Part shown: piece after piece, positions 4,231-34,594 of the stretch
Position numbering within the stretch: position 1 is the stretch's first letter
Layout: each line of letters begins with the position of its first letter
DNA from: Dehalococcoidia bacterium
Lineage (GTDB): Bacteria; Chloroflexota; Dehalococcoidia; UBA2979
Assembly (NCBI GenBank): GCA_965247925.1
Contig: CBDFIB010000004.1
Location: forward strand, 195,499 to 259,498
DNA length: 64,000 nt
Direction of reading: 5' to 3'
The notes under the pieces: model-generated
Seen by the model: the letters and a program-made list of their open reading frames with translations, nothing else
What the model was told of the DNA's origin: nothing
The model's database searches: none
Program-made: the position numbers and the translations under genes

Positions 4231-4998
4231 ATGACCAACCCAACGGGAGCCTACGAGCGCCGCATCGAGCTTGAGGGGGTGCGGAACTTCCGCGACCTCG
4301 GCGGCTACGAGACCGGCGACGGCGCGCGCCTGCGCTGGCGCACCGTCTACCGCTCCAGCACGCTCTGCGAGGCGACGCCCGCCGACGTGCAGCGCCTACT
4401 CGACCTCGACCTCACGCTCGTGCTCGACCTGCGCTCCGACGACGAACTCGAACGGACCGGCATCTCCACGCTGCACGAGCACGGCGTCGAACACCGCCAC
4501 GTGCCCTACCGGCGCAGCCTCACGACCTCGGCCGACCGCCTTGCGATGCGCGACCGCTCCGGGACGGGCCTCGACTACCTGCCCGGCATCGAGAGGTGCA
4601 TGCCGGCGGTCGGCGAGGTCTTCGCGGCGATCGCCGAGGTCGACGACGGGCAGGCGATCGCCTTCAACTGCGAGGGCGGCAAGGACCGCACCGGCGTGAC
4701 GGCCGCGCTGCTGCTGCGCGTGCTTGGCGTCCCCGACGAGACGATCGTCCAGGACTACGTGCTCACCCGCGAGTACCTGACGATGTGGCGTGACCTCAGC
4801 GACGAGCAGATCGCGGCGAGGGGTGAGCGGTGGGGCCTCGAGCTGACGCGCGCCATGCTCGACTCCACGCCCGACACGATGGAGGCGCTGCTGCGCGGGA
4901 TCGACGAGCGCTTCGGCTCCACCGCCGCGCTGCTCGCCCTCGGCGGCGTCGACACGTCCCTGATCGAGCGGCTGCGGGAGCGGCTGCTCGAGCGCTAA
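4231..4998 (+). CDS. Protein-tyrosine phosphatase (Tyr_Phos_2 family)
   Basis: CX5R P-loop ([10 protein letters not shown]), RNFRDLGG N-terminal motif. 255 aa. Confidence 0.8.
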
Positions 4999-5531
4999 CC
5001 GGACTCCCAGCCCGCAGCTGCGAGCGGTTCGACCCCCTCGAGGCCGACGTCGTCGCGCAGCTCGGCGACGCTGCGCCCCAGCAGCGGGTGCACGAGCTGC
5101 GGCGCGATCTCCGCGAGCGGGACGAGAACGAAGGAACGCTCGTGCATCCTCGGATGCGGGAGCTGCAGCTCCGCGCTCTCGATCCGCAGCTCGCCGGCAA
5201 GCAGCAAGTCGAGGTCCAGCGGGCGCGGGCTGTTGCGCGGCGCGTCGAGGTCGCGGCCCGCGGCGACCTCGATGCGCTTGCAGAGGCGCAGCAGCTCGAG
5301 GGGTTCGAGCGCGGTGCGCACACAGGCCGCCGCGTTCGCGTAGGGCGGCGCGGGCGCCAGGCAGGCCGGCGAGCCCCACGGCTCCGTCTCGTAGAGCGGG
5401 GACACCGCCTCGACGGTCACACCCGCCTCCGCCAGCCTCGCGAGCCCCGTGCGCAGCGCGGCGATCCGATCGCCGAGGTTGCCGCCGATCCCGAGGTAGA
5501 CGCGCTGCTCCGTGCCCTCGGCGGCTGTCAC
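4995..5531 (-). CDS. folK: 2-amino-4-hydroxy-6-hydroxymethyldihydropteridine pyrophosphokinase (HPPK)
   Basis: [12 protein letters not shown]...PLYETEPWG...RPLDLDLL motifs. 4-nt overlap with folP upstream. Confidence 0.9.
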
Positions 5532-6400
5532 GGCGATTCCGCCCGGCGGCCACCGTGCACGATCGCGTCGGTCACCCTCGCGACATCGGCCATCTCGCGG
5601 ACATCGTGGACGCGCACGATGTCGGCTCCGGCGGCGATGGCGAGCACGACGGTCGCGGCGCCTCCGGCGACGCGCGAGGCGGGCGGCTCCTGCTCGCGCC
5701 CAAGCGCCCAGCCGATCGCGGACTTGCGCGAGCTGCCGAGCAGCAGCGGCCGCCCGAGCGCGCGCAGCTCGCCGAACCGGCGCACGAGCTCGAGACTCTG
5801 CTCCGGCCCGAAGCCGAAACCGAAGCCCGGATCGAGAATCAGCTGCTCACGCGACACGCCCGCCGCCTCCGCGATCGCGAGCGATTCCTCGAGGCCCGCT
5901 CGCACGTCGGCGATCACGTCGCCAGAGGACGGGCGGCCACGCTGGTTGTGCATCAGCACCGCCGGCAGCCCGCGCGCGGCGAGCAGCGGCGCGAGCGCCG
6001 GATCGGCGCGCAGGGCCTGCACATCGTTGAGCGCGTCGGCGCCCGCCTCGAAGGCTCGCCCGGCGACGTACGCCTTCGAGGTGTCGACGCTGATCGGCGC
6101 CGCGACGGCGTCGCGCACGGCGCGCAGCACGGGCGCGAGGCGCGCCCACTCGCCGGGCCCGTCGAGGGGATCGTGGCCGGGGCGCGTGGATTCCGCGCCG
6201 ACGTCGATCAGGTCCGCGCCGTCCTCGATCATCCGCGCGGCCTGCTCGGCGGCGACGGCCGGATCGAGCACGCCGTCGCCGGAGAAGGAGTCCGGCGTGG
6301 CGTTGACGATGCCCATCACGTAGCTGCGCCGCCCCCACTCGAAGCAGCGCCCGCCGATCACGATCGGCGCGGGAGGCGCGGCGGACGGCTCGGACGTCAT
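5528..6400 (-). CDS. folP: Dihydropteroate synthase
   Basis: [16 protein letters not shown]..., [10 protein letters not shown], pterin-binding TIM-barrel motifs. Confidence 0.9.
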
Positions 6401-6419: not shown

Positions 6420-6851
6420 TCAGACGATCTCGGCCGGGATCTCCTCGATCACGCCGCCCTGGTGAATGTAGTAGGCGTGCAGCGGAGGAGGTTCCCCGGC
6501 GAGCGAGACGAGCAGGTAGATGGTTCCCGGATAGGCCGGCTCGCGATCCGTCTCGCCGGGCGGGAAGAACGCCATCCGCACGTCCGTCTGCGAGGGGTAT
6601 GCGGGCGAGGCGACGTGCGAGTGATAGATCGCGAACAGCGCCTCGCCTCGTTCGTCGCGCTGCTGCTCCAGCCGCATCTGCTCCATGCCGTGCATCTCGA
6701 AGCGGTAGGGGCTGGCGGCGACGTTGGTCACGGGGTGCACGGAGACGGCCTCGCCGTCCTGGGCGTGCACCAGGCCGCAGGCCTCGTTCGGCAGATCCTC
6801 GCGGGCGTGCGCGATGATCGCATCGGCGAGGGCGCGCGGGATCCGTGGCAT
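6420..6851 (-). CDS. mec: Mec-like JAMM/MPN+ metalloprotease (CysO/MoaD-type sulfur-carrier deconjugase)
   Basis: EACG...HSHVASPAYPSQTD JAMM motif. Overall similarity in length and layout to mycobacterial Mec (Rv1334). Confidence 0.85.
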   Translation of the reverse strand: MPRIPRALADAIIAHAREDLPNEACGLVHAQDGEAVSVHPVTNVAASPYRFEMHGMEQMRLEQQRDERGEALFAIYHSHVASPAYPSQTDVRMAFFPPGETDREPAYPGTIYLLVSLAGEPPPLHAYYIHQGGVIEEIPAEIV

Positions 6852-6878: not shown

Positions 6879-7268
6879 CTACCAGGCCGTCGGCTCGCCG
6901 TCGTCGATGCAGGCGTTCCCGCTGAGGCGCATCAGCGCGAAGTTGGCGCTCGACGGCGGCGCCGCGAGGTGCTCGAGCCAGTGCGCGCGTTCGGACTCGG
7001 GCAGGCGCTCGGCGAAGTCCGAGGCGAACACCTCGATCTCCTCCTCGCCGGGCGCGATCCCGGCGTCGATCGACCAGCCACGCACGATCGCGATGCGGCC
7101 GACGCTGCGCGTGCGCAGCAGCCGCGCGTCAGCCCGCTCGCGGTAGCGGTCGAGGACGGAGGCGCGGAAGCGCAGCGGGAGCAGGCCGTAGTCGCCGCGC
7201 GCGACCGCGCGCTCGACCAGCGCGCGCTGCGATCCCCGCGCCCCGCCGTCGCTGTCCTCAGCGGCCAT
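6879..7268 (-). CDS. Hypothetical protein, 129 aa (possibly an SseC/DUF1416-like partner of the rhodanese; family assignment from memory only)
   Basis: ORF between the rhodanese and mec on the same strand, with genome-typical codon usage and no recognisable catalytic motif. Confidence 0.45.
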   Translation of the reverse strand: MAAEDSDGGARGSQRALVERAVARGDYGLLPLRFRASVLDRYRERADARLLRTRSVGRIAIVRGWSIDAGIAPGEEEIEVFASDFAERLPESERAHWLEHLAAPPSSANFALMRLSGNACIDDGEPTAW

Positions 7269-7274
7269 CGGCTC

Positions 7275-8099
7275 CTACGTCTCGATCGGCACGCCGATCA
7301 GCGAGCCGTACTCGGTCCACGAGCCGTCGTAGTTCTTCACGTCGTCGTGGCCGAGCAGGTACTTGAGCACGAACCAGGTGTGCGAGGAGCGCTCGCCGAT
7401 GCGGCAGTAGGCGATTGCCGGCTCGTCCTCGACGACGCCCGCGCCGCCGTAGATCTCGCGCAGATCGTCGGCGCTGCGGAAGGTGCCGTCCTCGTTGACG
7501 GCGCGCGCCCAGGGCACGTTGATCGCGCCGGGGATGTGGCCGCCGCGCTGCGCCGTCTCCGGCAGGCCAGGCGGCGCGATGATCTCGCCGACGAACTCGG
7601 CCGGGCTGCGCACGTCCACCAGCTGCGGCGCCTGCGCCGCGACAGCCGCGAGGATCTCGTCGCGCTGGGCGCGCAGGCTGGCGTCCTGCTCCTGCGCCGT
7701 GTAGCTGGCGCGTCCAATCGAGGGCGCGTCGGTCGTGACCTCGCGCCCGTCGGCGATCCACTTCACGCGGCCGCCGTCCATCAGCGAAACCTGCTCGTGG
7801 CCGTGAAGCTCCAGCAGCCACAGCGCGTAGGCCGCGAACCAGTTGTTGTTGTCGCCGTAGAGCACCACGTGCGTGTCGTTGCTGATGCCAGAAGACGCCA
7901 GCAGGTCCTCAAGGTCGTCCTTCGCGATCACGTCGCGGCGCACCTGGTCCTGCAGCTGCGTCGCCCAGTTCCAGCCGGCGGCGCCCGCGATGTGGCCCTC
8001 GTCGTAGGCGCCGGTGTCGACGTCGACCTCGACGAGGCGCACGTTCGAGTCGCTTCCGTGTTCGGCTACCCAGTCCGCCGTCACAAGCTTGTCCGTCAT
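7275..8099 (-). CDS. sseA: Thiosulfate/3-mercaptopyruvate sulfurtransferase (tandem rhodanese domains)
   Basis: Two rhodanese domains; active-site CRIGERSS loop. Start taken at MTDKLVTADWV (ATG 8099) rather than the track's 8153. Confidence 0.85.
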   Translation of the reverse strand: MTDKLVTADWVAEHGSDSNVRLVEVDVDTGAYDEGHIAGAAGWNWATQLQDQVRRDVIAKDDLEDLLASSGISNDTHVVLYGDNNNWFAAYALWLLELHGHEQVSLMDGGRVKWIADGREVTTDAPSIGRASYTAQEQDASLRAQRDEILAAVAAQAPQLVDVRSPAEFVGEIIAPPGLPETAQRGGHIPGAINVPWARAVNEDGTFRSADDLREIYGGAGVVEDEPAIAYCRIGERSSHTWFVLKYLLGHDDVKNYDGSWTEYGSLIGVPIET

Positions 8100-8208
8100 G
8101 GTCCGTTCCCCTCTCGGGCGGCAGGGCCGCACCAAACTCGACTTTGTTGGCAAAGATTATCAACATCAGCGCCGCAGCACAACCGCCGGCGACGCATCGC
8201 CGCTCCGG

Positions 8209-9165
8209 CTACCACCAGAGCGTCGTGTTCACGTCCTCCTCGATCGCGTCGTAGTCCTGCGTCCAGAGGCCCGAGGACAGGTACTTCCAGCCGCTGTCCG
8301 CGAGCAGGCAGACGACCTTGCCGCTGCGCATCCGCTCCGCCGCGCGCTGCGCGGCGCGCACCGCCGCCCCGCTGGAGACGCCGGCGAAGATGCCCGTGCG
8401 CTCGGTCAGCTCCCGCGTCAGCCGGAACGAGGTCGCCGAGTCGACGACGATCCGCCCGTCGAGCACGGACTCGTCGAGGACGGGCGGGATGTAGCCCTCC
8501 TCGAGGCTGCGCAGGCCCTGCACCAGGTCGCCCGGATGCGGGGCCGCGGCGACGATGCGCACGGCCGGGTTGTGCTCCTTCAGCCGCCGCCCGACGCCGG
8601 TCAGCGTCCCGCCGGTTCCGAGGCCGGCGACGAAGACGTCGGTGTCCGGCAGGTCCGCGATGATCTCCGGGGCCGTGCTCTCGTAGTGGGCGCGCGGGTT
8701 GTCCTCGTTGTCGTACTGGAAGGGCATGAACCACTCGGGGTGCTCGGCGTGGATCCGCTGCGCCTCGCGCACCGAGCCGTTGGTGCCGAGGTCGCCCGGC
8801 GAGTAGAGGATCTCCGCGCCGAAGCTCTCGAGCAGCTCGACGCGCTCGCGGGTGACGGCGTCCGGCATCACCACCTTCACTGGGTAGCCACGCAGGCGGC
8901 CGATCATCGCCAGCGAGATGCCGGTGTTGCCGGAGGTCGGCTCGAGGATCGTCTGGCCGGGCTCTAGGCGGCCGTCGCGCTCGGCGGCGGAGACCATCCA
9001 CCAGGCGATGCGGTCCTTGACGGAGCCGGTCGGGTTCTCACCCTCCAGCTTCGCGTAGATGCTCACCTCGGGGTTGGGCGACATCACGGAGATGTCGACC
9101 AGCGGCGTGCCGCCGATGCGGTCGAGCAGGCTGCCGGCGGGCGTCCGTCCCGTCGCCTTAGCCAC
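8209..9165 (-). CDS. cysM: Cysteine synthase B-type (CysO-thiocarboxylate / O-phosphoserine dependent), PLP enzyme
   Basis: PTGSVKDR lysine motif and GNTG loop. Sits immediately downstream of a MoaD-like GG carrier, as in mec-cysO-cysM loci. Confidence 0.85.
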   Translation of the reverse strand: MAKATGRTPAGSLLDRIGGTPLVDISVMSPNPEVSIYAKLEGENPTGSVKDRIAWWMVSAAERDGRLEPGQTILEPTSGNTGISLAMIGRLRGYPVKVVMPDAVTRERVELLESFGAEILYSPGDLGTNGSVREAQRIHAEHPEWFMPFQYDNEDNPRAHYESTAPEIIADLPDTDVFVAGLGTGGTLTGVGRRLKEHNPAVRIVAAAPHPGDLVQGLRSLEEGYIPPVLDESVLDGRIVVDSATSFRLTRELTERTGIFAGVSSGAAVRAAQRAAERMRSGKVVCLLADSGWKYLSSGLWTQDYDAIEEDVNTTLWW

Positions 9166-9180: not shown

Positions 9181-9456
9181 CTAGCCGCCGGCCAGCGCGG
9201 GCAGGATCGACACCTCGTCGCCCTCGCTCAGCGCGGTCTCGGCGCCCTGCAGGAAGCGCACGTCCTCGTCGTTGAGGTAGACGTTGACGAAGCGGTGCAG
9301 TTGCCCGCCCTCGTCGACGAGTTGCGAGCGGAAGCCCGGATAGCGCCGCTCGATGTCGTCGATCAGCTCCGCGACGGTGCCGCCCTCGGCGGTCAGTGCG
9401 CGCTGACCGCCGACGGTCTTCTGGATCACCGAGGTCATGTTGACCTGCACCAGCAA
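9181..9456 (-). CDS. cysO: MoaD/ThiS/CysO-family sulfur-carrier protein (beta-grasp, C-terminal Gly-Gly)
   Basis: 91 aa ending ...SILPALAGG, MoaD-like pattern. 15 nt upstream of cysM. Confidence 0.8.
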   Translation of the reverse strand: MLVQVNMTSVIQKTVGGQRALTAEGGTVAELIDDIERRYPGFRSQLVDEGGQLHRFVNVYLNDEDVRFLQGAETALSEGDEVSILPALAGG

Positions 9457-9498: not shown

Positions 9499-10617
9499 CT
9501 AGTGCCCGCCGCCGTTGGCCGTCAGGGCCTCGAGCGGTGGGGCGCCGCAGAACGCGTCGTAGTCGATGAGCTCCGTCACGGTCGGCTCGTCACCGCAGAG
9601 CGGGCAAGCCGGATCGCGCCGCAGCTTCATCTCGCGGAACTCCATGGTCAAGGCGTCGATGAGCAGCAGCCGCCCGACGAGCGGCCGGCCGACGTCGAGC
9701 ACCTGTTTGAACACCTCGGTCGCCTGGATCGAGCCGACGATGCCGGTAATCGAGCCCAGCACGCCCGCCTCGGCGCAGGAGGGCACCAGGCCCGGCGGCG
9801 GCGGCGCGGGGTAGAGGCAGCGGTAGCAGCCCTGGCCCGGCTTGAAGACGGTGGCCTGCCCGTCGAAGAGCAGGATCGAGCCGTCCACCAGCGTCTTGCC
9901 CAGCAGGTAGGCGGCGTCGTTGACCAGGTAGCGCGTCGCGAAGTTGTCCGCGCCGTTCACCACGATCTCGTAGTCCGCGAGGATCTCCATCGCGTTCTCC
10001 GAGTGCAGCGGCGCCGGGTGCGTCACAACCCGCACGTGCGGGTTGTAGGCGTGCAGCGTGTCCACCGCCGAGTCGAGCTTCGTGCGCCCGACGTCCTCGG
10101 TCTGGTGCAGCAACTGGCGCTGCAGGTTGGAGAGGTCCACCACGTCGAAGTCGACGAGCCCGATCGTGCCGACGCCGGCGAGCGCGAGGTAGATCGCGAC
10201 CGGGGAGCCGAGGCCGCCCGCGCCCACGATCAGCACCTTCGCGTTGCGCAACTGGCGCTGCCCGATCGAGCCCACCTGCGACATGACGATGTGCCTCGAG
10301 TAGCGCATCGCCTCGTCCGGGGTGAGCGCCGCGCTCGGCGCGGCGCCGCCCGCGAGGGCGGGGATGACCGCGACCTGGTCGCCGTCTCCGACGGCGGTCG
10401 CGACGCCGTCGAGCTCGTGGATCTCCTGGTTGTTGACGTAGATGTTGATGTGCGCGGGCACCCGGCGCTCGCGGTCGTAGACGAGCATGTCGAAGCCCGG
10501 GTAGCGCGCGTTCACCGCGTCGAGGACGCCCGCCACGTCGCCGCCGTCCACCTCGACGTACTCGCGATTGGCCGTGAACTTGCGGAATGGCTGTGGGATG
10601 TAGACGCTGACCGCCAT
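9499..10617 (-). CDS. Fusion protein: N-terminal MoaD/CysO-like ubiquitin-like domain (ends ...IPALAGG) + MoeB/ThiF-type E1 adenylyltransferase with C-terminal CxxC...CPLC zinc motif; no rhodanese domain
   Basis: Residues 1-91 from ATG 10617 (MAVSVYIPQPF...VIPALAGG) resemble the two stand-alone carriers. These are followed by MRYSRHIVM...LIVGAGGLGSP (ATP-binding GxGxxG)...CYRC...CPLCG. The track start at 10746 would overlap cysK, so the internal ATG at 10617 (or 10650) is preferred. Confidence 0.85.
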   Translation of the reverse strand: MAVSVYIPQPFRKFTANREYVEVDGGDVAGVLDAVNARYPGFDMLVYDRERRVPAHINIYVNNQEIHELDGVATAVGDGDQVAVIPALAGGAAPSAALTPDEAMRYSRHIVMSQVGSIGQRQLRNAKVLIVGAGGLGSPVAIYLALAGVGTIGLVDFDVVDLSNLQRQLLHQTEDVGRTKLDSAVDTLHAYNPHVRVVTHPAPLHSENAMEILADYEIVVNGADNFATRYLVNDAAYLLGKTLVDGSILLFDGQATVFKPGQGCYRCLYPAPPPPGLVPSCAEAGVLGSITGIVGSIQATEVFKQVLDVGRPLVGRLLLIDALTMEFREMKLRRDPACPLCGDEPTVTELIDYDAFCGAPPLEALTANGGGH

Positions 10618-10682
10618 CTCCGATCGCCGTCCTTCCTGCCGATCTGCCATGTGCTCCTGATCCGTTCCCTGTCCCCTGTTGC

Positions 10683-11636
10683 TCATGAGAGCGCCACGCT
10701 CAGGTAGCGCTCGCCCGTGTCGCAGAGCATCGTCACCACGCGACACCCCGGACCGAGCCGCTTGCCAACCTCGATCGAGGCCCAGACGTTGCTGCCGGAG
10801 GAGATGCCGACGAGCAGGCCTTCCTCGCGGCTGAGCCGCTCCGTTATCCGGAAGGCGTCCTCGTCGCGGACGCTGATCACCTCGTCGTAGATCTCGCGGT
10901 TGAGTACGCCCGGCACGAACGAGGCGCCGATGCCCTGGATGCCGTGCAGCCCCGCCCGCCCGCCCTGCAGCACCGGCGAGCGCGCCGGCTCGACGGCGAC
11001 GATGCGCACGTCCGCGGCGGCCTCGCGCAGCACCTCGCCGATGCCGGTGATCGAGCCGCCGGTGCCGACGCCGGCCACGAACGCGTCCAGCTCGCCGCCG
11101 GTCGCCTCGAGGATCTCGGGCCCCGTCGTCTCGCGGTGGATGCGCGGGTTGGCGAGGTTGTCGAACTGCTGCGGCATGAAGTAGCCGTGCTGCTCGGAGA
11201 GCTCGCGGGCGGCGTAGACCGCGCCCGTCATGCCCTCGATCGCCGGGGTCAGCCGCAGCTCCGCGCCGAAGCGCTCCAGCAGGCGGCGCCGCTCGACGCT
11301 CATGTCCTCCGGCATCGTCAGGATCAGCCGGTAGCCCTTGCGCGCGCAGACCATCGCGAGGCCGATGCCGGTGTTGCCGGAGGTCGGCTCGACGATCGTG
11401 TCGCCTAGCTCGATCAGTCCCTCGCGCTCGGCGTCCTCGATCATGCTGAGCGCGATCCGGTCCTTGACGGAGCCGGCCGGATTGCGCGATTCGAGCTTGC
11501 CGAGGATCTCGGCGCAGCCCTCGGGCACGACGCGGCCGAGCCGCACCAGCGGCGTGTCGCCGATCAGATCGAGCACGGTGTCGGCGATCGCCGGCTGGGC
11601 GCGACGACCCTCGGTGGTCGGCGCGGTGGTCGTCAT
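10683..11636 (-). CDS. cysK: Cysteine synthase A (O-acetylserine sulfhydrylase)
   Basis: GSVKDR, TSGNTG, typical CysK. Start at MTTTAP (ATG 11636), overlapping by 1 nt the TGA of the upstream Rrf2 gene. Confidence 0.85.
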   Translation of the reverse strand: MTTTAPTTEGRRAQPAIADTVLDLIGDTPLVRLGRVVPEGCAEILGKLESRNPAGSVKDRIALSMIEDAEREGLIELGDTIVEPTSGNTGIGLAMVCARKGYRLILTMPEDMSVERRRLLERFGAELRLTPAIEGMTGAVYAARELSEQHGYFMPQQFDNLANPRIHRETTGPEILEATGGELDAFVAGVGTGGSITGIGEVLREAAADVRIVAVEPARSPVLQGGRAGLHGIQGIGASFVPGVLNREIYDEVISVRDEDAFRITERLSREEGLLVGISSGSNVWASIEVGKRLGPGCRVVTMLCDTGERYLSVALS

Positions 11637-12082
11637 CAGATCGAGTAGTTCGCCGCGCGTGCGTGCTGCTTCGCCCGCGCGCGCTCCGCGAGGTCGGCGA
11701 TGCTCACCGCGCCGAGGCGGCTGCGCATGTCCTCGTAGATCTCCTCCCAGACGGTGCGCTGGGCGCAAAGACCGCATTCGAACGAGCACTCCTCACCGTC
11801 CTCGATGCAACTGATCGGCGCGACCGAGCCCTCGAGCGTCTCGATCACGTGCAGCAGGCACATCTCCTCGGGCTTGCGAGTGAGCAGGTGGCCGCCTCCG
11901 GGGCCGCGCACGCTGCGCACGAAGCCGCCGCGCCGCAGCAGGGCGAGCAGGTGGTCGAGGTAGGACTCCGGGATCTCCTGGCGACCGGCGATTCCCGCGC
12001 GCTGGACCGGCCCCTCGCCGTCGTGGAGCGCGAGGTCAATGAGCGCGCGAACGCCGTAATCGCCCTTCCTGCTCAGCCACAT
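11636..12082 (-). CDS. Rrf2-family transcriptional regulator (CymR/IscR-like)
   Basis: MWLSRKGDYGVRALIDLA... wHTH, plus three Cys in CIEDGEECSFECGLC (possible Fe-S ligands). Start at internal ATG 12082. Confidence 0.8.
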   Translation of the reverse strand: MWLSRKGDYGVRALIDLALHDGEGPVQRAGIAGRQEIPESYLDHLLALLRRGGFVRSVRGPGGGHLLTRKPEEMCLLHVIETLEGSVAPISCIEDGEECSFECGLCAQRTVWEEIYEDMRSRLGAVSIADLAERARAKQHARAANYSI

Positions 12083-12085
12083 TTT

Positions 12086-12140
12086 CCCGACCGCCGCTAA
12101 TGTCGAGTAAGTTGACCAACATTCTAGCACAAGGGTCGGT
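12086..12140 (-). promoter_or_regulatory. Candidate promoter/operator of the Rrf2-cysK... operon
   Basis: On the coding strand: ...TTGTGCTAGAATGTTGGTCAACTTACTCGACATT then ATG. Extended -10 (TGcTAGAAT) followed by an imperfect palindrome GTTGgtCAAC overlapping the predicted transcription start region. Confidence 0.3.
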
Positions 12141-12200
12141 TGGGCCAAGCACTCGGGGATCGGGGCAGGTCAGCGTCCACGGGCGTCACTCGGGATTCGA

Positions 12201-13286
12201 TCAGCTCACCTGATACTGTTTGATGGCGTCCTGGTCGAACTCGAGGCCCAGACCCGGCTTGTCCGGCACCACAATCTGCCCGTCCTCAATGACCGGGGTT
12301 TCTTCAAACAGCCGTAGCGTCCAGGGCATGTACTCCACCGTCAGTCCGTTTGGAATGGCGGCAATGTTGTGCACCTGAATCTCGGGTAGCAGGTGGCTGA
12401 CCACCGGCAGATTGAATGCCTCAGCCATGCCCGCCACCTTTCGGAACTGGGTTATCCCGCCCACCCGCAGCAGGTCGATCATCACAATATCCATCGAGCG
12501 GTGCTCCAGCATGTGCCGGAAGGGACGGATGCCATACACGTACTCTCCGGCGGCGATGGGCGTGGTGAGCGAGTCCGCCACTCGGGCCAATCCCTGGTAG
12601 TCGTCCCGGGCCACCACGTCTTCCAGCCAGAACAGGTGGTACTCCTCCACACGTGACCCAATATCGATGGCCTGGTTCACGTCCCAGAGTTGGTTGATGT
12701 CGCACATCAGATCAATGTCCGGGCCGATGGCGTCGCGCAGGGTGCGGATGCGAGCCACCTCGCGCCGAGCGGTAGGTTCGGCGCCCATCTGGGTCTTCAT
12801 CTGCCTGAAGCCCAGCTCCACCAGGCGAGGACCGGCCTCGGCCAGATACTCCAGATCCATGGGACGCCCCAGTGCGCCGCTGGCGTAGGTAACGACCCGG
12901 TCGCGGTGACCACCCAGCAGGGAGCACACCGTCTGGTTCAGGGCCTTTCCCTTGATGTCCCACAGAGCGATGTCGATGGCCGATATCGCCAGGCTGAATA
13001 TGCCCTCCGGGCCGGAACCGCCCGCCGCGAGTCGCAACCTGTCGGTTACCGCCTCCACCTGCAGCGGGTCTTCGCCCACCGTCAGTTCACAGAGATTGTC
13101 GACCGCAGTGCGCAGGGCCGGGGTGAGCGGGCCACCGAAGAACGTAATGCCGATGCCCTGCACGCCTTCGTCGGTGTCCAGTTCCAGAGTGACGAACTCC
13201 CGGGTGCCAGGCTCGTCGATGCCCACCACCAGGGGATTGTCGGCCGGGGTTTGCAACACACGGGTGGTCCAGCTGCTTACTTTCAT
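12201..13286 (-). CDS. Mandelate racemase / muconate lactonizing enzyme family protein (enolase superfamily)
   Basis: N-terminal capping domain plus TIM barrel (KALNQTVCSLLGG, MCDINQLWD, EDVVARDD). Start at MKVSSWTT (ATG 13286). Confidence 0.8.
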   Translation of the reverse strand: MKVSSWTTRVLQTPADNPLVVGIDEPGTREFVTLELDTDEGVQGIGITFFGGPLTPALRTAVDNLCELTVGEDPLQVEAVTDRLRLAAGGSGPEGIFSLAISAIDIALWDIKGKALNQTVCSLLGGHRDRVVTYASGALGRPMDLEYLAEAGPRLVELGFRQMKTQMGAEPTARREVARIRTLRDAIGPDIDLMCDINQLWDVNQAIDIGSRVEEYHLFWLEDVVARDDYQGLARVADSLTTPIAAGEYVYGIRPFRHMLEHRSMDIVMIDLLRVGGITQFRKVAGMAEAFNLPVVSHLLPEIQVHNIAAIPNGLTVEYMPWTLRLFEETPVIEDGQIVVPDKPGLGLEFDQDAIKQYQVS

Positions 13287-13580
13287 GTGACTGCCCCCGG
13301 AATTGCTCCTTGATTCATAAGCCCTCACCCCAACCCTCTCCCTCAGGGAGAGGGGGCCGGAGCGGTCAGTCCCCGATTGTGCGCGGGGGGAAATCCCTGG
13401 CCGGGTGCGCCGCGAGCACTGCTTCATCGAGGTCGATGCCGAGGCCCGGCGCGGTGGGGAGGGCGATGTGGCTGTCCTCGACCTCGAAGGCCGGCGTCGC
13501 GGCTTCCCGGCCCCACGGCTCGAAGTTCACGAAGCAACCGGTGATGATGAAGCTGGGCATCATCACCGGCGGCAGTATGC
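13225..13580. repeat. Direct repeat copy A (~350 bp, ~90% identical to 15100-15450)
   Basis: By-eye alignment of 13262-13580 with 15127-15450. It covers the 5' end of the MR gene at 12201, a conserved palindrome ccctctccctcagggagaggg (13334-13354), and a 3' fragment of a paralog of the MR gene at 15240. Confidence 0.8.
13366..13566 (-). pseudogene. C-terminal fragment (about 66 aa) of an MR-family paralog (a copy of the 3' end of gene 15240..16376)
   Basis: ...FIITGCFVNFEPWGREAATPAFEVEDSHIALPTAPGLGIDLDEAVLAAHPARDFPPRTIGD is nearly identical to the C-terminus of the intact gene at 15240, but has no upstream body. Confidence 0.6.
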
Positions 13581-13635
13581 GCGACTTTGTGAACGAGCAG
13601 AAGGCTCGCCAGGAACGCGGCGAGGCAACCGACTG

Positions 13636-15033
13636 CTAGAGCTCCGGGTTGCGCATGAAGTCCGTCGCCTGCTCGTAGGCGTAGCCGGCCCGGCAGAGCG
13701 CCTGTTCGCTGCCCAGCGGACCGACGAGCTGCAGCGCGATCGGCATGCCCCGCTCGCTCCAGCCGTTGGGCAGAGTCAGCGTCGGGGCGCGGTTCATGTC
13801 CCAGGGGACCGTGTACTGCAGCCGCCGCCACTGGAATTCTCCCGGCCTGTCATCGTACATCATGTCCTCGGTCACCCGGTGCGGCAACGTGCCCTGGGCC
13901 GGACAGGCCAGCATGTCGATGTCGGCGAAGACCCGAGCCAGTAGGCCGCGCAGTTCTTCGCGGCGGATGCAGGCGTCGGCGTACTCGGTCGCGCTGACAG
14001 ACGACCCCAGCTCCAACCAGGCGCCGAACCAGTTGCCGTAGTCGCCGGCCCGGTTCGGATAGTTATCGAGATGCGCGTGTAGAGCCTCAACCGAGCAGAG
14101 CGTCGGCAAATCGGCCATGTAAGGCATGAAGTCGGGTAGTTGGACCAAGACGATCTCCGCGCCCAGCGATGCCAGGGTTTCGACCGATGCGGCGACGGCC
14201 TCGGCGATTGGCGGGATTACGTCTTCGGTCGCATAGCGCTCGTCATAGCCGATCCGCATACCCGCAACGCCGCCGTCGATCCCGTCAAGCATGGCCGGAG
14301 CCGGCTCGGGCAGCGTGGTCGGATCGTTGGGGTCGTCGCCCGCGATCACTTCGAGCGTGACGGCGCAGTCCCAGGTCGAGCGGCACATCGGGCCGACGTG
14401 GTCGAGCGACTGCGCCAGGTCGAGCACGCCATAGCGGCTCACGCGTCCCCAGGTCGGCTTCAGACCGACGATGCCGCAGGCTGCGGACGGGGTACGGATA
14501 GAGCCGCCGGTGTCGCTGCCCAACGACGCGTAGCAAAGCCCGGCCGCTGTCGCCACAGCGGAGCCGCTGGAGGAGACGCCGGCCCAGCGTCCGGCGTCCC
14601 AGGGGTTAACCGGCACCTGCCGCGCGCGGTTGTATCCGGCCATCGCGCCCTCGGTCATGTTGAGCTTGCCCAGCATCACCGCGCCGGCGTCTTTGAATCG
14701 GGCGACGACCGTGGAGTCGAAGTCAGGAACGAGGTCCTCGAGCACCTTCGTCCCGCCCATCGTGCGGACGCCCGCCGTGTAGCAGAGGTCCTTGACCGCG
14801 ATCGGAACCCCGTGCAGCGGACCGCGATAGTTGCCGGCGGCGATCTCGTCCGCGGCCTGCTGCGCTTTCGCCAGCGCCGAATCGGCCATCACAGTCGCGT
14901 AACTCTTGAGCCGACCGTCGTGCGCCTCGATGCGGTCCAACTGGGCCTGCGTCAGCGCGACCGGCGACAGCTCTCCTGAGGCGATCCGCGGGGCGAGCTC
15001 TTCGATCGTTGCGTAAGCGAGGTCATCGGTCAT
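13636..15033 (-). CDS. Amidase (amidase-signature family)
   Basis: GGSSSGSAVATAAG AS-family signature, catalytic K (AVKD) and S-cisS-S residues. 465 aa. Confidence 0.85.
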   Translation of the reverse strand: MTDDLAYATIEELAPRIASGELSPVALTQAQLDRIEAHDGRLKSYATVMADSALAKAQQAADEIAAGNYRGPLHGVPIAVKDLCYTAGVRTMGGTKVLEDLVPDFDSTVVARFKDAGAVMLGKLNMTEGAMAGYNRARQVPVNPWDAGRWAGVSSSGSAVATAAGLCYASLGSDTGGSIRTPSAACGIVGLKPTWGRVSRYGVLDLAQSLDHVGPMCRSTWDCAVTLEVIAGDDPNDPTTLPEPAPAMLDGIDGGVAGMRIGYDERYATEDVIPPIAEAVAASVETLASLGAEIVLVQLPDFMPYMADLPTLCSVEALHAHLDNYPNRAGDYGNWFGAWLELGSSVSATEYADACIRREELRGLLARVFADIDMLACPAQGTLPHRVTEDMMYDDRPGEFQWRRLQYTVPWDMNRAPTLTLPNGWSERGMPIALQLVGPLGSEQALCRAGYAYEQATDFMRNPEL

Positions 15034-15064
15034 TGGTCAGCTCCGTCCGAATCGGTCGTTTCCC

Positions 15065-15160
15065 AGTCCCGGCTCGGGGGTCGGGCTGATCGACGCCGAC
15101 GATGAGGGGATTAACGTCCGGGGTCTGCAGCACACGGGTGGTCCAGTTGCTTACTCTCAT
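15065..15160 (-). pseudogene. N-terminal fragment (about 30 codons) of a paralog of MR gene 12201..13286
   Basis: MRVSNWTTRVLQTPDVNPLIVGVDQPDPRAG matches MKVSSWTTRVLQTPADNPLVVGIDEPGTREF, then diverges and runs into the amidase start. Confidence 0.5.
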
Positions 15161-15450
15161 GTGACTGCCCCTGGAATTGCTCCTTGATTCATACGCCCTC
15201 ACCCCAACCCTCTCCCTCAGGGAGAGGGGGCCGGAGCGGTCAGTCGCCGATTGTACGCGCGGGGAAGTCCCTCGCTGGATGAGCCTCGAGGACTGCTTCA
15301 TCGAGGTCGATGCCGAGGCCCGGCGCGGTGGGGAGGGCGATGTGGCTGTCCTCGACCTCGAAGGCCGGCGTCGCGGCCTCCTGGCCCCACGGCTCGAAGT
15401 TCACGAAGTACTCCGTGATGATGAAGTTCGGCATCGTCGCCGCGGCCTGC
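15100..15450. repeat. Direct repeat copy B (partner of 13225-13580)
   Basis: See copy A. Contains the same palindrome at 15208-15228. Confidence 0.8.
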
Positions 15451-16376
15451 AGCGTCGCGGCCAGCGCCACGGTCGTCGAGTTGTAGTTGTGCGGAGCGAC
15501 CGCGACGAAGTACGCCTCGGCCATCGCGGCGATCTCCGTCAGTTCCTTGATGCCGCCCACGTTCGCCACGTCGGGATTGATGATGTCCGCCGCGCGCTGC
15601 TCGAAGACCTCGCGGAACTCGAACTTCGTGTAGAGTTCCTCGCCCGTGACGGTGGGGATGTTGATCTGCGCCGTCGCGGCGGCCAGGGCGGTCACGTTCT
15701 CGGCCCAGACCGGCTCCTCGAACCAGAACGGCTCGTACTCCTCGACCATCTTCGCGAGGCGCACCGCGTTCGAGGGACTCAGCCGGCGGTGGACCTCGAC
15801 CAGCACGTCGACGTCGGGGCCGACCGCCTCGCGAACCGCGCGCACGCGATCGGCGGCGACGCGCAGCTCCTTCATGCCCACGTAGCTGCGCCACTTGCCC
15901 GGCACCGGATCGAACTTGAGCCCGGTGAACCCGCGCTCGACCATCGCGCGCGCTCGCGCCTGCAGCTCCTCGAGGTCGTCCATCCTCGCCCAGCCGTTGG
16001 CGTAGACGCGCAGCCGATCGCGCACCGCGCCGCCGAGCAGCTGGTGCACGGGCATCCCCGCACGCTTGCCCGCGAGGTCCCACATCGCCTGTTCCACACC
16101 GGAGATCGCCGCGTACAGGTCCATCGCGCCGCGCCGGTTGCCGAAGTCGTTGTGGATGGCGTCGGTCCAGGGCTTAATCCGCGCCGAGTCCCAACCCACG
16201 ATGTAGCGCCGCAGCGCCTCGAGGTGCGCCGTGATCTGGATGTCGCGGTCCGACTGCGTGTAGCACTCGCCCCAGCCGTGCAGCCCGTCGGCCGTCTCCA
16301 GCCGGACGAAGCAGAGGTTCTTGCCCGCGATGTAGCGATCCGGCTGCCCCGTGTCGGGCGGCGTGGGGTGGACCAG
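15240..16376 (-). CDS. Mandelate racemase / muconate lactonizing enzyme family protein, start codon non-canonical or unresolved
   Basis: TIM-barrel part in track ORF 15240..16199 (KFDP..., EEP, PDV). The N-terminal capping domain (...KNLCFVRLETADGLHGWGECYTQSDRD...) continues in frame upstream to a TGA at 16401-16403 with no ATG/GTG/TTG. The only candidate start is CTG 16376. Confidence 0.65.
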   Translation of the reverse strand: MVHPTPPDTGQPDRYIAGKNLCFVRLETADGLHGWGECYTQSDRDIQITAHLEALRRYIVGWDSARIKPWTDAIHNDFGNRRGAMDLYAAISGVEQAMWDLAGKRAGMPVHQLLGGAVRDRLRVYANGWARMDDLEELQARARAMVERGFTGLKFDPVPGKWRSYVGMKELRVAADRVRAVREAVGPDVDVLVEVHRRLSPSNAVRLAKMVEEYEPFWFEEPVWAENVTALAAATAQINIPTVTGEELYTKFEFREVFEQRAADIINPDVANVGGIKELTEIAAMAEAYFVAVAPHNYNSTTVALAATLQAAATMPNFIITEYFVNFEPWGQEAATPAFEVEDSHIALPTAPGLGIDLDEAVLEAHPARDFPARTIGD

Positions 16377-16487
16377 GTGTAGCGAAGGTGAGTGGAGCGG
16401 TCAAGGTCTCCCGATTCGCCGATCGCAACGAGAGGCCGGCGATCATTCGCCTACCCCTCCAGCGTTGCGTGGACTGCCGACGGCGCG

Positions 16488-16763
16488 CTAGCCTCCGGCG
16501 ACCGCCGGGACGATCGAGACCTCGTCGCCCTCGGCCAGCTCGCTGGCGAGGCCGGAGAGGAAGCGCACGTCCTCGCCGTTGACGAAGACGTTCACGAAGC
16601 GGCGCAGTTCGCCGTCTTCCTCGCAGAGCCGCTCGCGCATCCCGGGGTAGGACGCCTCGAGGTTCTGAACCACGTCGCCGAGGGTTGCGCCCTCGAGGCT
16701 GACCAGCTCCTGGTCCCCGGTCAGGGTGCGGAGCGGGGCGGGGATTCGCACGTTCACTGCCAT
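16488..16763 (-). CDS. MoaD/ThiS/CysO-like sulfur-carrier protein (C-terminal Gly-Gly), paralog of 9181..9456
   Basis: 91 aa ending ...SIVPAVAGG. RRFVNVFVNGEDVRFLSG...EGDEVSI is near-identical in pattern to the cysO-like protein. Confidence 0.8.
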   Translation of the reverse strand: MAVNVRIPAPLRTLTGDQELVSLEGATLGDVVQNLEASYPGMRERLCEEDGELRRFVNVFVNGEDVRFLSGLASELAEGDEVSIVPAVAGG

Positions 16764-16818: not shown

Positions 16819-17067
16819 TTAGCCCTCGACGATGTCGCCGAGGGTGGCCTGATCGACGCGCACGCCCTTCGCCTGGGCCCAGGCGATCGCGCGGTCGATC
16901 TCGTCGGGTTCGCCCTCGAGCTCGAGCACGACCCAGCCGACGCGCTCGTCGACGTCCGCCATGCGGATGTTGGTGACGACCTCGAACTCGCGGCCGATCA
17001 GGTAGATCAGCGGCTCCTTGATCAGTTCGGGCGAGAAGGTGAAGCGGACCGGTCTGCTCGCCATCAT
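16819..17067 (-). CDS. NIL-domain protein (MetN C-terminal-like ferredoxin fold), 82 aa
   Basis: Only the last 82 codons of track ORF 16819..18291 are plausible: MMASRPVRFTFSPELIKEPLIYLIGREFEVVTNIRMADVDERVGWVVLELEGEPDEIDRAIAWAQAKGVRVD. The ATG at 17067 overlaps the TGA of the upstream ThrC-like gene (ATGA). Confidence 0.75.
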   Translation of the reverse strand: MMASRPVRFTFSPELIKEPLIYLIGREFEVVTNIRMADVDERVGWVVLELEGEPDEIDRAIAWAQAKGVRVDQATLGDIVEG

Positions 17068-18323
17068 GCGCCTCCTGCCGCGGCCGCGGCGGGCGCCCGC
17101 CGCGCCTCGTAGGCCTCGAAGAATGCGTCGCTGCGGGCGGGCACGTGCAGCGGGCTGGAGAGGCCGCCCTGCAGCGCCTCGGTGGTCTTGAGGCCGCCGC
17201 CGGTGATGAAGGCGACGGTCTCCTCGCCGGGCGCGATCTGGCCGCGTTCGGCCATGTGCTTGAGGCAGGCGATCGTGGTGCCGCCCGCCGTCTCGGCGAA
17301 GATGCCCTCGGTCTCCGCGAGCAGCTTCATGCCCTCGACGATCTCCGCGTCCGTGGCCATCGCCGCGACGCCGTTCGTCTCCTCCAGCGTCTTGAGCGCA
17401 TAGTACCCGTCCGCCGGGTTGCCGATCGCGATCGAGCGCGCGATCGTGTTCGGCTTCTGCGGCCGGAAGTTGAGCGTGCCCTCCTCGAAGGCGGTCGCGA
17501 TCGGCGAGCAGCCGGTCGCCTGCGCGCCCGACATGCGCGTCCGCGGCTCGTCGATCAGGCCGACCTGGTGCAGCTCCTTGAAGCCCTTCCAGATCTTCGT
17601 GAAGAGCGAGCCCGAGGCCATCGGCACCACGCAGTGGTCCGGTGTGCGCCAGCCGAGCTGCTCGGCCACCTCGAAGGCGAGCGTGCGCGAGCCCTCGGCG
17701 TAGTAGGGCCGCACGTTGATGTTGACGAAGGCCCACGGCTTGGACTGCGCGACCTCGGTGCAGAGCCGGTTCACGTCGTCGTAGGAGCCCTCGACCATCA
17801 CGAGGGTCGGGTTGTAGACGCCGCTGCCGACGACCTTGCCCTCCTCGAGGTCTTGCGGGATGAAGACGATCGTCTCCATGCCGGCGCGCGCGCCGTGCGC
17901 GGCGACGGAGTTGGCGAGGTTGCCGGTGCTGGCGCAGGCGATGCCCGTGTAGCCGAACTCGCGCGCCTTCGCGATCGCGACGGCGACGACGCGGTCCTTG
18001 AACGACCACGTCGGGTTGACGGTGTCGTTCTTGATCCAGAGCCGCTCGATGCCCAGCGCGTCCGCCAGGCGGTCGGCGCGGAGCAGCGGCGTGAACCCCG
18101 CTGCGAGGTCTACGCGGTACTCGGGATCGGAGGGCAGCAGATCGGCGTAGCGCCAGAGCGTGGCCGGGCCGGCGGCGATCGACTCGCGGGAGATCGCGTT
18201 GGCGATGCCCTCGTAGTCGTAGTCGACCTCGAGGGGGCCGAAGCAGAACTCGCAGAAGAAGATCGGTTTGAGCGGGAACTCGCGACCGCACTCGCGGCAG
18301 CGCAGGGATTGTTCGAAGGACAT
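17064..18323 (-). CDS. Threonine synthase-family PLP enzyme with N-terminal zinc ribbon (candidate O-phosphohomoserine sulfhydrylase / homocysteine synthase rather than canonical ThrC)
   Basis: CRECGREF...CEFCFG zinc ribbon. SFKDR PLP-lysine motif and the ThrC fold. Operon context with NIL + MoaD-like carrier. Confidence 0.85.
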   Translation of the reverse strand: MSFEQSLRCRECGREFPLKPIFFCEFCFGPLEVDYDYEGIANAISRESIAAGPATLWRYADLLPSDPEYRVDLAAGFTPLLRADRLADALGIERLWIKNDTVNPTWSFKDRVVAVAIAKAREFGYTGIACASTGNLANSVAAHGARAGMETIVFIPQDLEEGKVVGSGVYNPTLVMVEGSYDDVNRLCTEVAQSKPWAFVNINVRPYYAEGSRTLAFEVAEQLGWRTPDHCVVPMASGSLFTKIWKGFKELHQVGLIDEPRTRMSGAQATGCSPIATAFEEGTLNFRPQKPNTIARSIAIGNPADGYYALKTLEETNGVAAMATDAEIVEGMKLLAETEGIFAETAGGTTIACLKHMAERGQIAPGEETVAFITGGGLKTTEALQGGLSSPLHVPARSDAFFEAYEARRAPAAAAAGGA

Positions 18324-26634: not shown

Positions 26635-28683
<2,049 letters not shown>

Positions 28684-34165: not shown

Positions 34166-34594
34166 GGTGGAACTCCAGGGGCTGGTCCGGAGGGACCGCT
34201 ACGGGAGGTGGCGGGTCGCGATGCGGCGCTGCCCGTCGGGGTGGGTTCGTGAGGTTGCGAGCGCGCGGATTGTACACAGTTCATCCCAAGATCGCCCTGT
34301 GATGGCAACGGTGGTGGGAAAAGCGGCTCAGTGCCCACATAACAGGCTTGTGCGGCGGGCTGTGGATTCGCTAGCCTCCCGTCTGCCAAGGGCATCGACA
34401 TCGCTGTGGGGCACCTTCGGAGCGGATAGCGGGGCGAGGGGGCGGCTGGCCCTCAGTAGGCAGAATCGTGCGTCCGGTGGCGTGCGCGTGTTACCAACAC
34501 GTGTGCATTGGTCGTTGACATCCACGCCAGGAGTCGGTTTCCGGCGCGCTCACCCCGAGCCGGCGGGCGGCGAGAGCGCCGGAAGGGTACAAGG

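Follow-up and report, generated by a model that had tools for sequence, protein, structure and literature searches.

Why would a bacterium make a sulfur carrier whose working end is already joined to the enzyme that has to activate it? The question is raised by the gene at positions 9499..10617 (minus strand) of a 64,000-nucleotide stretch of DNA, hereafter called the window, from contig CBDFIB010000004.1 of a Dehalococcoidia bacterium (assembly GCA_965247925.1). The encoded protein has three parts in 372 amino acids: an N-terminal ubiquitin-like (Ubl) module of the CysO type, a linker, and the adenylyltransferase (E1) core of a MoeB/MoeZ-type enzyme. A Gly-Gly inside a chain cannot be adenylated, which is established E1 chemistry. 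In the primary translation product 281 residues stand C-terminal to the Gly-Gly of the carrier module, so that it has no free C-terminal carboxylate. We propose, from comparison of sequences, that the fusion is a precursor: the Mec-like JAMM protease of the same gene cluster would cut it after Gly91 and release a third carrier, which would then be thiocarboxylated through the E1 and a stand-alone rhodanese. We consider this reading probable. The parts of the gene are as follows.

9499..10617, minus strand: Ubl-E1 fusion gene, 372 amino acids, 39.6 kDa (open reading frame and translation; Pfam ThiS and ThiF)
10345..10617, minus strand: beta-grasp module of the ThiS/MoaD/CysO type, residues 1-91, ending IPALAGG (alignments, PDB match, AlphaFold2)
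10345..10350, minus strand: internal di-glycine Gly90-Gly91, with the proposed scissile bond between Gly91 and Ala92 (conservation)
10327..10344, minus strand: variable low-complexity linker AAPSAA, residues 92-97, short in this genome (homolog comparison, AlphaFold2)
9592..10326, minus strand: E1 adenylation domain, residues 98-342 (Pfam ThiF; MoeB match by sequence and fold)
9502..9591, minus strand: C-terminal tail, residues 343-372, an interdomain segment of the MoeZ type, ELIDYxxFCG (comparison with the relatives P0126 and P0124)

Is the fusion a real gene? Comparative sequence evidence says that it is, because the architecture recurs and its upstream part is under purifying selection. 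Among the 120 homolog clusters that match best, at 68-95% identity, 119 have both Pfam domains, and a scan of species-representative genomes found the fusion intact in 29 loci, all of them in Chloroflexota metagenome-assembled genomes (MAGs). The in-frame fusion occurs in many independent assemblies and, among the 29 loci, in complete chromosomes. Those homologs that carry an organism name come from Chloroflexi/Dehalococcoidia MAGs and are annotated merely 'MoeB'. A preliminary description of this DNA, made from the letters alone, had left room for a start near MRYSRH, downstream of the Ubl-like segment. The homologs instead open at the same MAVSVYIP as this protein; its start codon is ATG, and a AGGAAGGA box ends 12 nt 5' of it. 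Pfam places ThiS (PF02597) at residues 7-91 (E 4.9e-10, 40.2 bits against a cut-off of 22.5) and ThiF (PF00899) at residues 106-339 (E 1.8e-78, 263 bits). The best NCBIfam models are the MoeB/MoeZ equivalogs, which align over the E1 part only.

The N-terminal module is a carrier by every comparison that we made. The preliminary description had noted that the first 91 or so residues resemble the two free carriers of the window, and they do: both alignments are gapless from end to end over 91 amino acids at 34% identity (E 2e-21 with the carrier at 9181..9456; E 2e-23 with the carrier at 16488..16763). All three modules of the window end in AGG at position 91, and G90-G91 align with the terminal Gly-Gly of both free carriers and of Mycobacterium tuberculosis CysO. 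The nearest solved relatives are M. tuberculosis CysO itself (3DWG_C, E 1.3e-12, residues 1-91) and a ThiS/MoaD-family chain (4N6E_B). An AlphaFold2 run on a 101-sequence alignment of the fusion (mean predicted local distance difference test score, pLDDT, 80.8) gives residues 1-86 the beta-grasp fold that had been anticipated, at a pLDDT of about 80-92, with strands at 2-6, 20-24, 57-61 and 81-86 and a helix at 28-38. The tail and linker that follow (residues 87-95) are disordered in the model, with pLDDT below 50, and are therefore likely to be accessible.

Could the module be a relic? A codon analysis of 30 genes gave a ratio of nonsynonymous to synonymous substitution rates (dN/dS) of 0.26 in the Ubl module; the E1 region had 0.17-0.19. 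For comparison, the free CysO had 0.31, MetO 0.30 and the JAMM 0.34. A decaying Ubl domain is ruled out by these figures; the module is maintained like a working carrier.

The most telling feature is the contrast between the Gly-Gly and what stands behind it. As first described, the module ends at an internal Gly-Gly and a short linker follows: the C-terminal stretch of the module reads ...DQVAVIPALAGG up to Gly91, with IPALAGG at its end, and the sequence directly C-terminal of it at the junction is AAPSAALTPDEAMR. No sequence in the 101-member alignment departs from A89, G90 or G91, and the Gly-Gly is kept in 118 of 119 close fusions, with a module end of the form IPA[LIMV]AGG. The residue right after it is Ala in 83, Ser in 13, Asp in 4 and Gln in 1 of the 101 sequences. 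Between the Gly-Gly and R105 lie 10-35 residues in the homologs, of which 2-27 form a variable spacer in which A, G, S, D, P and N are frequent; it leads into ALTPDEVMRYSRHIIM, the conserved N-terminus of the E1. A near-invariant Gly-Gly with a hypervariable spacer behind it is the pattern of a cut site plus a spacer.

The E1 part has all that a MoeB-type adenylyltransferase should have. Escherichia coli MoeB (1JW9_B) matches it both by sequence (E 2e-57) and by fold (TM-score 0.89; Foldseek with the AlphaFold2 model), and the GxGxxG and paired CxxC motifs reported at the outset are read from the sequence as GAGGLG (132-137), CYRC (264-267) and CPLC (338-341). R108 of RYSRH aligns with the second Arg of the MoeB motif RYNRQ. 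R105 and R108, the nucleotide loop GAGGLG, the acidic residues D158 and D224 at the ribose/Mg positions, the zinc-site cysteines C264, C267, C338 and C341, and C281 are invariant in 101 sequences. The lack of the rhodanese domain of MoeZ also stands: a Pfam search found no Rhodanese match in the fusion protein, and the NCBIfam MoeZ model PRK07878 aligns over profile positions 9-283 of 392 only, with a score below its cut-off. Moreover, the tail stops after ELIDYDAFCG, just where the rhodanese begins in the E1-rhodanese relatives P0126 and P0124; L350, D352, Y353, C357 and G358 of this tail are invariant in the same 101 sequences.

What could expose the Gly-Gly? The fusion gene lies in a cluster with the following neighbours.

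6420..6851, minus strand: Mec-like JAMM/MPN+ metalloprotease, 143 amino acids, a candidate enzyme for cutting between Gly-Gly and the next residue and for hydrolysing carrier-amino-acid adducts (Prok-JAB)
6879..7268, minus strand: orphan 129-amino-acid protein between the rhodanese and JAMM genes (55 homolog clusters only)
7275..8153, minus strand: stand-alone two-domain rhodanese, 292 amino acids, CRIGERS loop (Pfam Rhodanese, two stretches)
8209..9165, minus strand: CysM-type pyridoxal-phosphate enzyme (PALP; PDB matches)
9181..9456, minus strand: free CysO-like carrier, 91 amino acids, AGG-stop (Pfam ThiS, E 2.6e-17; 48% identity to M. tuberculosis CysO)
10683..11639, minus strand: CysK, O-acetylserine sulfhydrylase A type (TIGR01139 cysK, 432.7 bits against a cut-off of 350.95; PDB matches to O-acetylserine sulfhydrylase A)
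11636..12148, minus strand: Rrf2-family regulator at the head of the cluster (Pfam Rrf2, E 6e-35, residues 25-155)
16488..16763, minus strand: second free carrier, MetO-like, 91 amino acids, AGG-stop (Pfam ThiS, E 2e-20; 57% identity to M. tuberculosis CysO)
16819..17067, minus strand: NIL-domain protein, 82 amino acids, between the MetM-like and MetO-like genes (Pfam NIL, E 1.6e-15)
17064..18323, minus strand: threonine-synthase-like pyridoxal-phosphate enzyme, candidate MetM, a carrier-thiocarboxylate-dependent homocysteine synthase (PALP and thrC-family matches)

The Mec-like JAMM pointed out in the preliminary description is indeed nearby: its gene starts 2.65 kb downstream of the fusion stop, on the same strand and in the same apparent operon. 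Its Prok-JAB match is strong (E 7e-21, 74.7 bits against a cut-off of 25), the NCBIfam desampylase model also matches (E 7e-18, below cut-off), and among its PDB matches are 2KKS and PfJAMM1 (5LDA). The JAMM motif, read from the sequence, is intact: E23 in NEACG, then H77-S-H79-VASPAYP-S88-QT-D91. It is the only protease-family gene of the conserved cluster.

That cluster is kept as a unit, and about 30 genomes of the class Dehalococcoidia have the fusion in it. A tblastn search with the window proteins recovered the co-directional order Rrf2-CysK-[Ubl-E1]-CysO-CysM-rhodanese-129-amino-acid orphan-JAMM-folP-folK, with ThrC-like-NIL-carrier upstream. The whole of it is present in 25 loci with enough flank, and the JAMM occupies the same position in 28. 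A carrier, a CysM-type sulfhydrylase, a Mec protease and an E1 share one co-directional cluster in 28 loci. The rhodanese is kept in 26 of the 29 fusion-bearing loci; the most divergent (L024, L031 and L032) have none beside CysM. Within the window, cluster genes overlap or stand 6-65 nt apart, the only promoter-like site is at 12148-12121 (minus strand), at the Rrf2 end, and no terminator-like site was found within the cluster.

In the scheme that we infer, the Gly-Gly of residues 1-91 would be masked by the flexible spacer and by the E1 itself until the JAMM at 6420..6851 cuts between Gly91 and Ala92. The cut would yield a 29.8-kDa E1 and a 9.9-kDa carrier whose Gly-Gly carboxylate is free. 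Such a product would not yet be the activated carrier that was first suggested, since the E1 and a sulfur donor would still be needed. The E1 would adenylate the released carrier, the CysO-like carrier (9181..9456) and the MetO-like carrier (16488..16763), and the rhodanese (7275..8153) would give persulfide sulfur to turn them into thiocarboxylates. We presume that this rhodanese is the persulfide donor in place of an E1-fused one because the fusion E1 has no rhodanese domain of its own. CysM would make cysteine from carrier thiocarboxylates, as in M. tuberculosis, and the MetM-like enzyme would make homocysteine. The same JAMM would hydrolyse carrier-amino-acid adducts, as Mec does, and so recycle the carriers.

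Why do we favour release by the JAMM? One reason is the invariant Gly-Gly before a variable spacer. The others are that the module has the full length and the AGG end of a free carrier and is under purifying selection like one, that the disordered tail and linker look accessible, that the MPN+ motif is intact, that JAMM cleavage of linear Ubl fusions has precedents (below), that a JAB gene abuts the fusion in seven of seven distant lineages, and that free carriers of sister genomes often extend past their Gly-Gly.

The distant lineages come from a search of 1.84 billion representatives, in which 14 more divergent fusion clusters stood among the best 150. These fusions are 41-61% identical to ours and several have an added C-terminal rhodanese. 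The pattern [AS]-x-[AS]-G-G is found at the same place in 13 of the 14. Fusions thus occur beyond Chloroflexota: one cluster has a member named Gemmatimonadales and one locus carries spoIVA. In all seven distant lineages examined, the Prok-JAB and fusion genes either overlap or are no more than 20 nt apart (Rhd, rhodanese; PKS, polyketide synthase; brackets enclose one protein).

L080: JAB-[Ubl-E1]-rhodanese
L081: [Ubl-E1-Rhd]-JAB
P0131: PKS-PALP-JAB-[Ubl-E1-Rhd]
L082, L083: JAB-[Ubl-E1]
L084, L085: JAB-[Ubl-E1]-PALP
L086, L087: Rrf2-PALP-JAB-[Ubl-E1-Rhd]
L091: JAB-[Ubl-E1-Rhd]-ThiG

A tblastn search with four carriers found no second carrier in the DNA fetched for L080-L087 (five lineages), neither of two unassigned small open reading frames read in L091 is a carrier, and the gene table for the P0131 place lists no free ThiS. 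The neighbours include a CysM-like PALP enzyme (L084-L087 and the P0131 place) and ThiG (L091). In characterised systems, CysM-type enzymes and ThiG accept the C-terminal thiocarboxylate of a carrier. If these neighbours do so too, then the fused module must be freed in those lineages. The L086 operon is the fused counterpart of the 'ThiS/MoaD + E1-rhodanese + JAB + cysteine synthase' type (PMC1779556, Table 1 row 4c), and in L091 (1389-4223) the fused module may take the place of ThiS in a JAB-fusion-ThiG cluster.

Two of the distant loci have further peculiarities. At L080 (8001-9453) the C-terminal part of the 377-amino-acid fusion P0154 reads as out-of-frame and a separate, overlapping 113-amino-acid rhodanese reading frame follows; the likely cause is a frameshift, genuine or introduced during assembly, in what is otherwise a Ubl-E1-rhodanese triple fusion. 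At the P0131 place the PKS (KS-TE)-PALP-JAB-fusion cluster resembles one for natural-product biosynthesis.

Both free carriers of the window end exactly at GG-stop, and the only masked Gly-Gly in the window is that of the E1 fusion. In sister genomes the free carriers are often longer, by 1-10 residues. CysO continues after its Gly-Gly with AATLGRARRG (L012, L013), RG (L016), A (L020, L023, L032), SEG (L025), CHLP (L026) or ACAGKAG (L031), and MetO with ATLVQ (L016), C (L020, L024), V (L023) or A (L025). Residues after the Gly-Gly imply that the clade needs a protease that cuts there. At L032 (1627-2451, plus strand) a MetO-like carrier with an internal AGG is followed by a 164-amino-acid carboxymuconolactone-decarboxylase (CMD)/AhpD-like domain that has a CxxC motif; Pfam reports ThiS and CMD. 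The MetO-CMD protein adds to this gene cluster another type of Ubl fusion whose Gly-Gly is masked.

A number of observations weigh against release by the JAMM. The single exception among the 119 close fusions reads AAG at the Gly-Gly position, and one distant fusion, P0221, has lost both the Gly-Gly and the ThiS signature. The operon already encodes two free carriers that end in Gly-Gly, and no acceptor for a third (MoaE, ThiG or TtuA-like) was found elsewhere in the window. Nor is a neighbouring JAB gene specific to fusions: the unfused E1-rhodanese P0128 has one 1.2 kb away, and in M. tuberculosis a JAB gene accompanies free CysO and CysM, where the protease hydrolyses the CysO-cysteine adduct. 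At L029, which encodes an unfused relative, the locus contains neither a carrier nor a CysM or JAB gene. Finally, for another class of Ubl-ThiF fusions, Iyer 2006 (PMC1779556) took the solo carrier gene beside them to imply a different role for the fused domain.

The L029 gene itself (9977-10804, plus strand; a Dehalococcoidia MAG, UBA1123) encodes an unfused 275-amino-acid E1, 74% identical to the E1 part of the fusion, and a rhodanese gene is next to it. The class Dehalococcoidia thus has E1s of both the fused and the unfused form. P0005 is another closely related unfused E1. Split orthologs, with a Ubl gene ending in GG-stop directly upstream of an E1 gene, were not found in related genomes; L029 is neutral on this point.

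Might the Ubl module never be released? It could be a tethered adaptor or scaffold, like the ubiquitin-fold domain of eukaryotic E1s, that recruits the rhodanese, CysM, the MetM-like enzyme or the JAMM, or that stabilizes the E1 dimer, so that only the free carriers carry sulfur. Two free carriers with an exposed Gly-Gly in the same cluster would suit such a division of labour, P0221 survives without its Gly-Gly, and in the AlphaFold2 model the module folds independently at the end of a flexible tether. The same inference was drawn for Ubl-ThiF fusions beside solo ThiS genes (Iyer 2006, PMC1779556). We nevertheless find it unlikely. A scaffold needs no invariant C-terminal AGG at the domain boundary, yet the AGG is kept down to 41% identity, and a spacer that ranges from 2 to 27 residues keeps no fixed geometry. 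Moreover, a scaffold sits poorly with seven other lineages where no other carrier was found and where the fusion lies beside enzymes that need a carrier thiocarboxylate.

A second alternative is zymogen-like control. Here the uncleaved Ubl would dock, probably on the partner subunit of the dimer, and thread its Gly-Gly and linker through the adenylation site, blocking access of CysO and MetO until a JAMM cut licenses the E1; the released module would be a by-product or a competitor, not a dedicated carrier. The Gly-Gly is only 14-17 residues ahead of the conserved Arg of RYSRH (R108), and in MoeB the corresponding Arg reaches the ATP site of the partner subunit. A need to fit the active-site channel would also explain why the Gly-Gly is conserved, and the Rrf2 regulator at the operon head suggests tight control of the pathway. 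However, precise threading is hard to reconcile with a spacer of hypervariable length, the AlphaFold2 tail (87-95, pLDDT below 50) has no confident placement, and regulated JAMM activity would have to be postulated. Where no other carrier was found nearby, moreover, the fused Ubl presumably carries sulfur itself. We regard this alternative as doubtful.

Least of all do we credit an artefact, in which a sequencing error merged a carrier gene and an E1 gene or translation truly starts near M104, leaving the upstream part untranslated: there is an ATG (M104) just ahead of RYSRH, and the close unfused E1s L029 and P0005 exist, but continuous in-frame fusion in 119 of 120 clusters and 29 loci, purifying selection on the upstream part, D, T or N in place of M104 in many homologs and a conserved E1 N-terminus (ALTPDEV) that reaches 5' of M104 make it exceedingly improbable.

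Release by the JAMM also has a bolder form. The tethered Ubl could keep the E1 occupied until the JAMM cut, and proteolysis would then license cysteine and homocysteine synthesis from thiocarboxylates as a whole. The released module would be a third carrier with a novel acceptor, perhaps the CysK-type enzyme immediately upstream or a route of cofactor or tRNA thiolation. This is speculative and we think it improbable. If it were true, a prokaryotic sulfur pathway would be under the control of Ubl-precursor processing, and the maturation of ubiquitin precursors would have a mechanistic forerunner there.

How does the cluster compare with known systems? Its closest counterparts are the CysO-CysM-Mec-MoeZ route of M. 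tuberculosis and the related operon type of row 4c (PMC1779556), which share CysO-type carriers, a CysM, a Mec-like JAMM and a MoeB/MoeZ-type E1. The carriers of the window are 36-57% identical to M. tuberculosis CysO. By contrast with the M. tuberculosis route, the E1 of the window has lost, or never had, the C-terminal rhodanese and a separate two-domain rhodanese gene is present instead; it bears the extra N-terminal carrier; and the cluster adds CysK, Rrf2 and the nearby MetM, NIL and MetO genes.

Precursors of this general kind are cut by JAMM proteases elsewhere. DR0402 (DRJAMM) cleaves the Deinococcus radiodurans MoaD-MoaE fusion to give a C-terminal Gly, and that cut is needed for activity (PMC8832034); the fused MoaX of M. 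tuberculosis is cited there as another linear fusion. HvJAMM1 cleaves linear SAMP1 fusions, among them SAMP1-MoaE (PMC4443979). In these cases, too, a ThiS/MoaD-family module with an internal Gly-Gly precedes a functional partner and the JAMM exposes the Gly-Gly. Their partner is a sulfur-accepting synthase subunit, whereas that in the window is the activating E1, and cleavage is demonstrated there and predicted here.

Ubl-E1 fusions have themselves been noticed before. Iyer 2006 (PMC1779556) described Ubl-ThiF proteins of delta/epsilon-proteobacteria and Firmicutes beside solo ThiS, with a Ubl 'distinct from ThiS'. Makarova and Koonin 2010 (PMC2948915) described Ubl-E1 proteins in Thaumarchaeota, 'shared with bacteria', and an mSystems 2024 paper (PMC11237513) reported MoaD-MoeB and MoaD-MoeBR, stating that among bacteria the fusion is found in Rokubacteria and NC10 only. 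The domain order in all three reports is the same as here, with the beta-grasp N-terminal to the E1 adenylation domain, and some of the fusions lie beside a solo carrier gene. Unlike Iyer's Ubl-ThiF, the window protein has a canonical CysO-type carrier with a conserved Gly-Gly, and in contrast to the range given in 2024 the fusion is widespread in Chloroflexota (at least 119 clusters) and present in other lineages. The preliminary description had called such fusions predicted but rarely characterised, which agrees with the literature that we searched: it yielded no experimental study of a Ubl-E1, CysO-MoeZ or MoaD-MoeB fusion, and the three papers just cited describe no experiment on theirs.

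The homocysteine branch has a parallel in the MetM/MetO/Mec/MoeZ route of Streptomyces, where Mec is required to mature MetO, as summarised in a GapMind 2026 preprint (doi 10.1101/2024.10.14.618325). In both, a ThiS/MoaD carrier lies beside a ThrC-like enzyme, and the homocysteine and cysteine branches draw on a single E1 and a single JAMM. The maturation of Streptomyces MetO by Mec also resembles the case of the sister-genome carriers with residues after the Gly-Gly. The differences are that both free carriers of the window end at GG-stop and that an extra NIL gene lies between the MetM-like and MetO-like genes.

A more remote likeness is with ubiquitin. Eukaryotic ubiquitin is made only as an N-terminal fusion, either polyubiquitin or ubiquitin-ribosomal protein, and is freed by a protease that cuts after Gly-Gly. 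Both arrangements co-produce a Ubl and its fusion partner stoichiometrically. The partner differs, however, the window system concerns sulfur transfer and not protein tagging, and homology of the arrangement is not implied.

This is therefore not a new kind of system: Ubl-E1 fusions were known from sequence analysis and JAMM cleavage was known for MoaD-MoaE. What is new is a large Chloroflexota clade of fusions and the comparative argument that a JAMM processes them. The configuration is specific, combining a rhodanese-less E1, three carrier modules, and cysteine and homocysteine branches under one Rrf2-headed cluster. If the JAMM does separate the carrier from the E1, the protein would become the first characterised example of a sulfur carrier made in fusion with its activating enzyme, alongside the MoaD-MoaE cases. 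It would also strengthen the view that a Ubl fusion precursor, a JAMM that exposes its Gly-Gly and an activating E1 were already combined in bacterial sulfur metabolism. The compact and highly conserved cluster is suited to in vitro reconstitution, with one E1, a rhodanese, a JAMM, three carrier modules and the cysteine and homocysteine enzymes. Annotation gains as well: proteins named plain 'MoeB' carry a carrier module, and the bacterial range is wider than Rokubacteria and NC10.

The other genes of the cluster deserve brief comment. In the PDB the CysM-type enzyme matches 3DWG_A and 3DKI_A best (E about 2e-82), and the next cysteine synthase follows at 1.7e-69. Its closest solved relative is thus the CysO-thiocarboxylate-dependent O-phosphoserine sulfhydrylase of M. 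tuberculosis, CysM in complex with CysO (E 1.6e-82), and from this similarity O-phosphoserine is its likely substrate and a carrier thiocarboxylate its likely sulfur donor. The rhodanese matches the NCBIfam 3-mercaptopyruvate sulfurtransferase model (E 5e-38, below cut-off). The 129-amino-acid orphan has no match in Pfam, NCBIfam or PDB sequences; AlphaFold2 folds it with a pLDDT of 87, yet no significant PDB fold match was found. Five of its residues, H96, W97, H100, C120 and D123, are invariant and hint at a site for a metal or sulfur. The true start of the Rrf2 gene is probably downstream of 12148.

The MetO-like gene adjoins the MetM-like and NIL genes, and the start of the NIL gene overlaps the stop of the ThrC-like gene. 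This ThrC-like/NIL/carrier trio is a homocysteine module of the MetM/MetO-like kind and recurs in L032. It is separated from the Rrf2 gene by about 4.3 kb (12201..16400), which hold two enolase-superfamily (MR/MLE) genes and a 465-amino-acid reading frame; in L010-L016 the Rrf2 and MetO-like genes are adjacent. The 465-amino-acid frame is flanked by a direct repeat of 300 nt, with 90% identity, at 13201-13500 and 15075-15374; the repeat duplicates the last part of one enolase-family gene and the first part of the second. It suggests a duplication or insertion event common to the closest relatives, L002-L009.

At the other end of the cluster, folP and folK (4995..6400, minus strand) come directly after the JAMM gene, with a 19-nt gap and then overlapping genes; this link of folate genes to the sulfur-carrier cluster is kept in nearly all related loci. 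The other genes of the window are housekeeping ones, among them obg, pnp, dapB, asd, dapA, purA, pyrG and rho. Since gyrB (26644..28683) and dnaA (34508..35944) also lie within it, the window is probably near the chromosomal replication origin.

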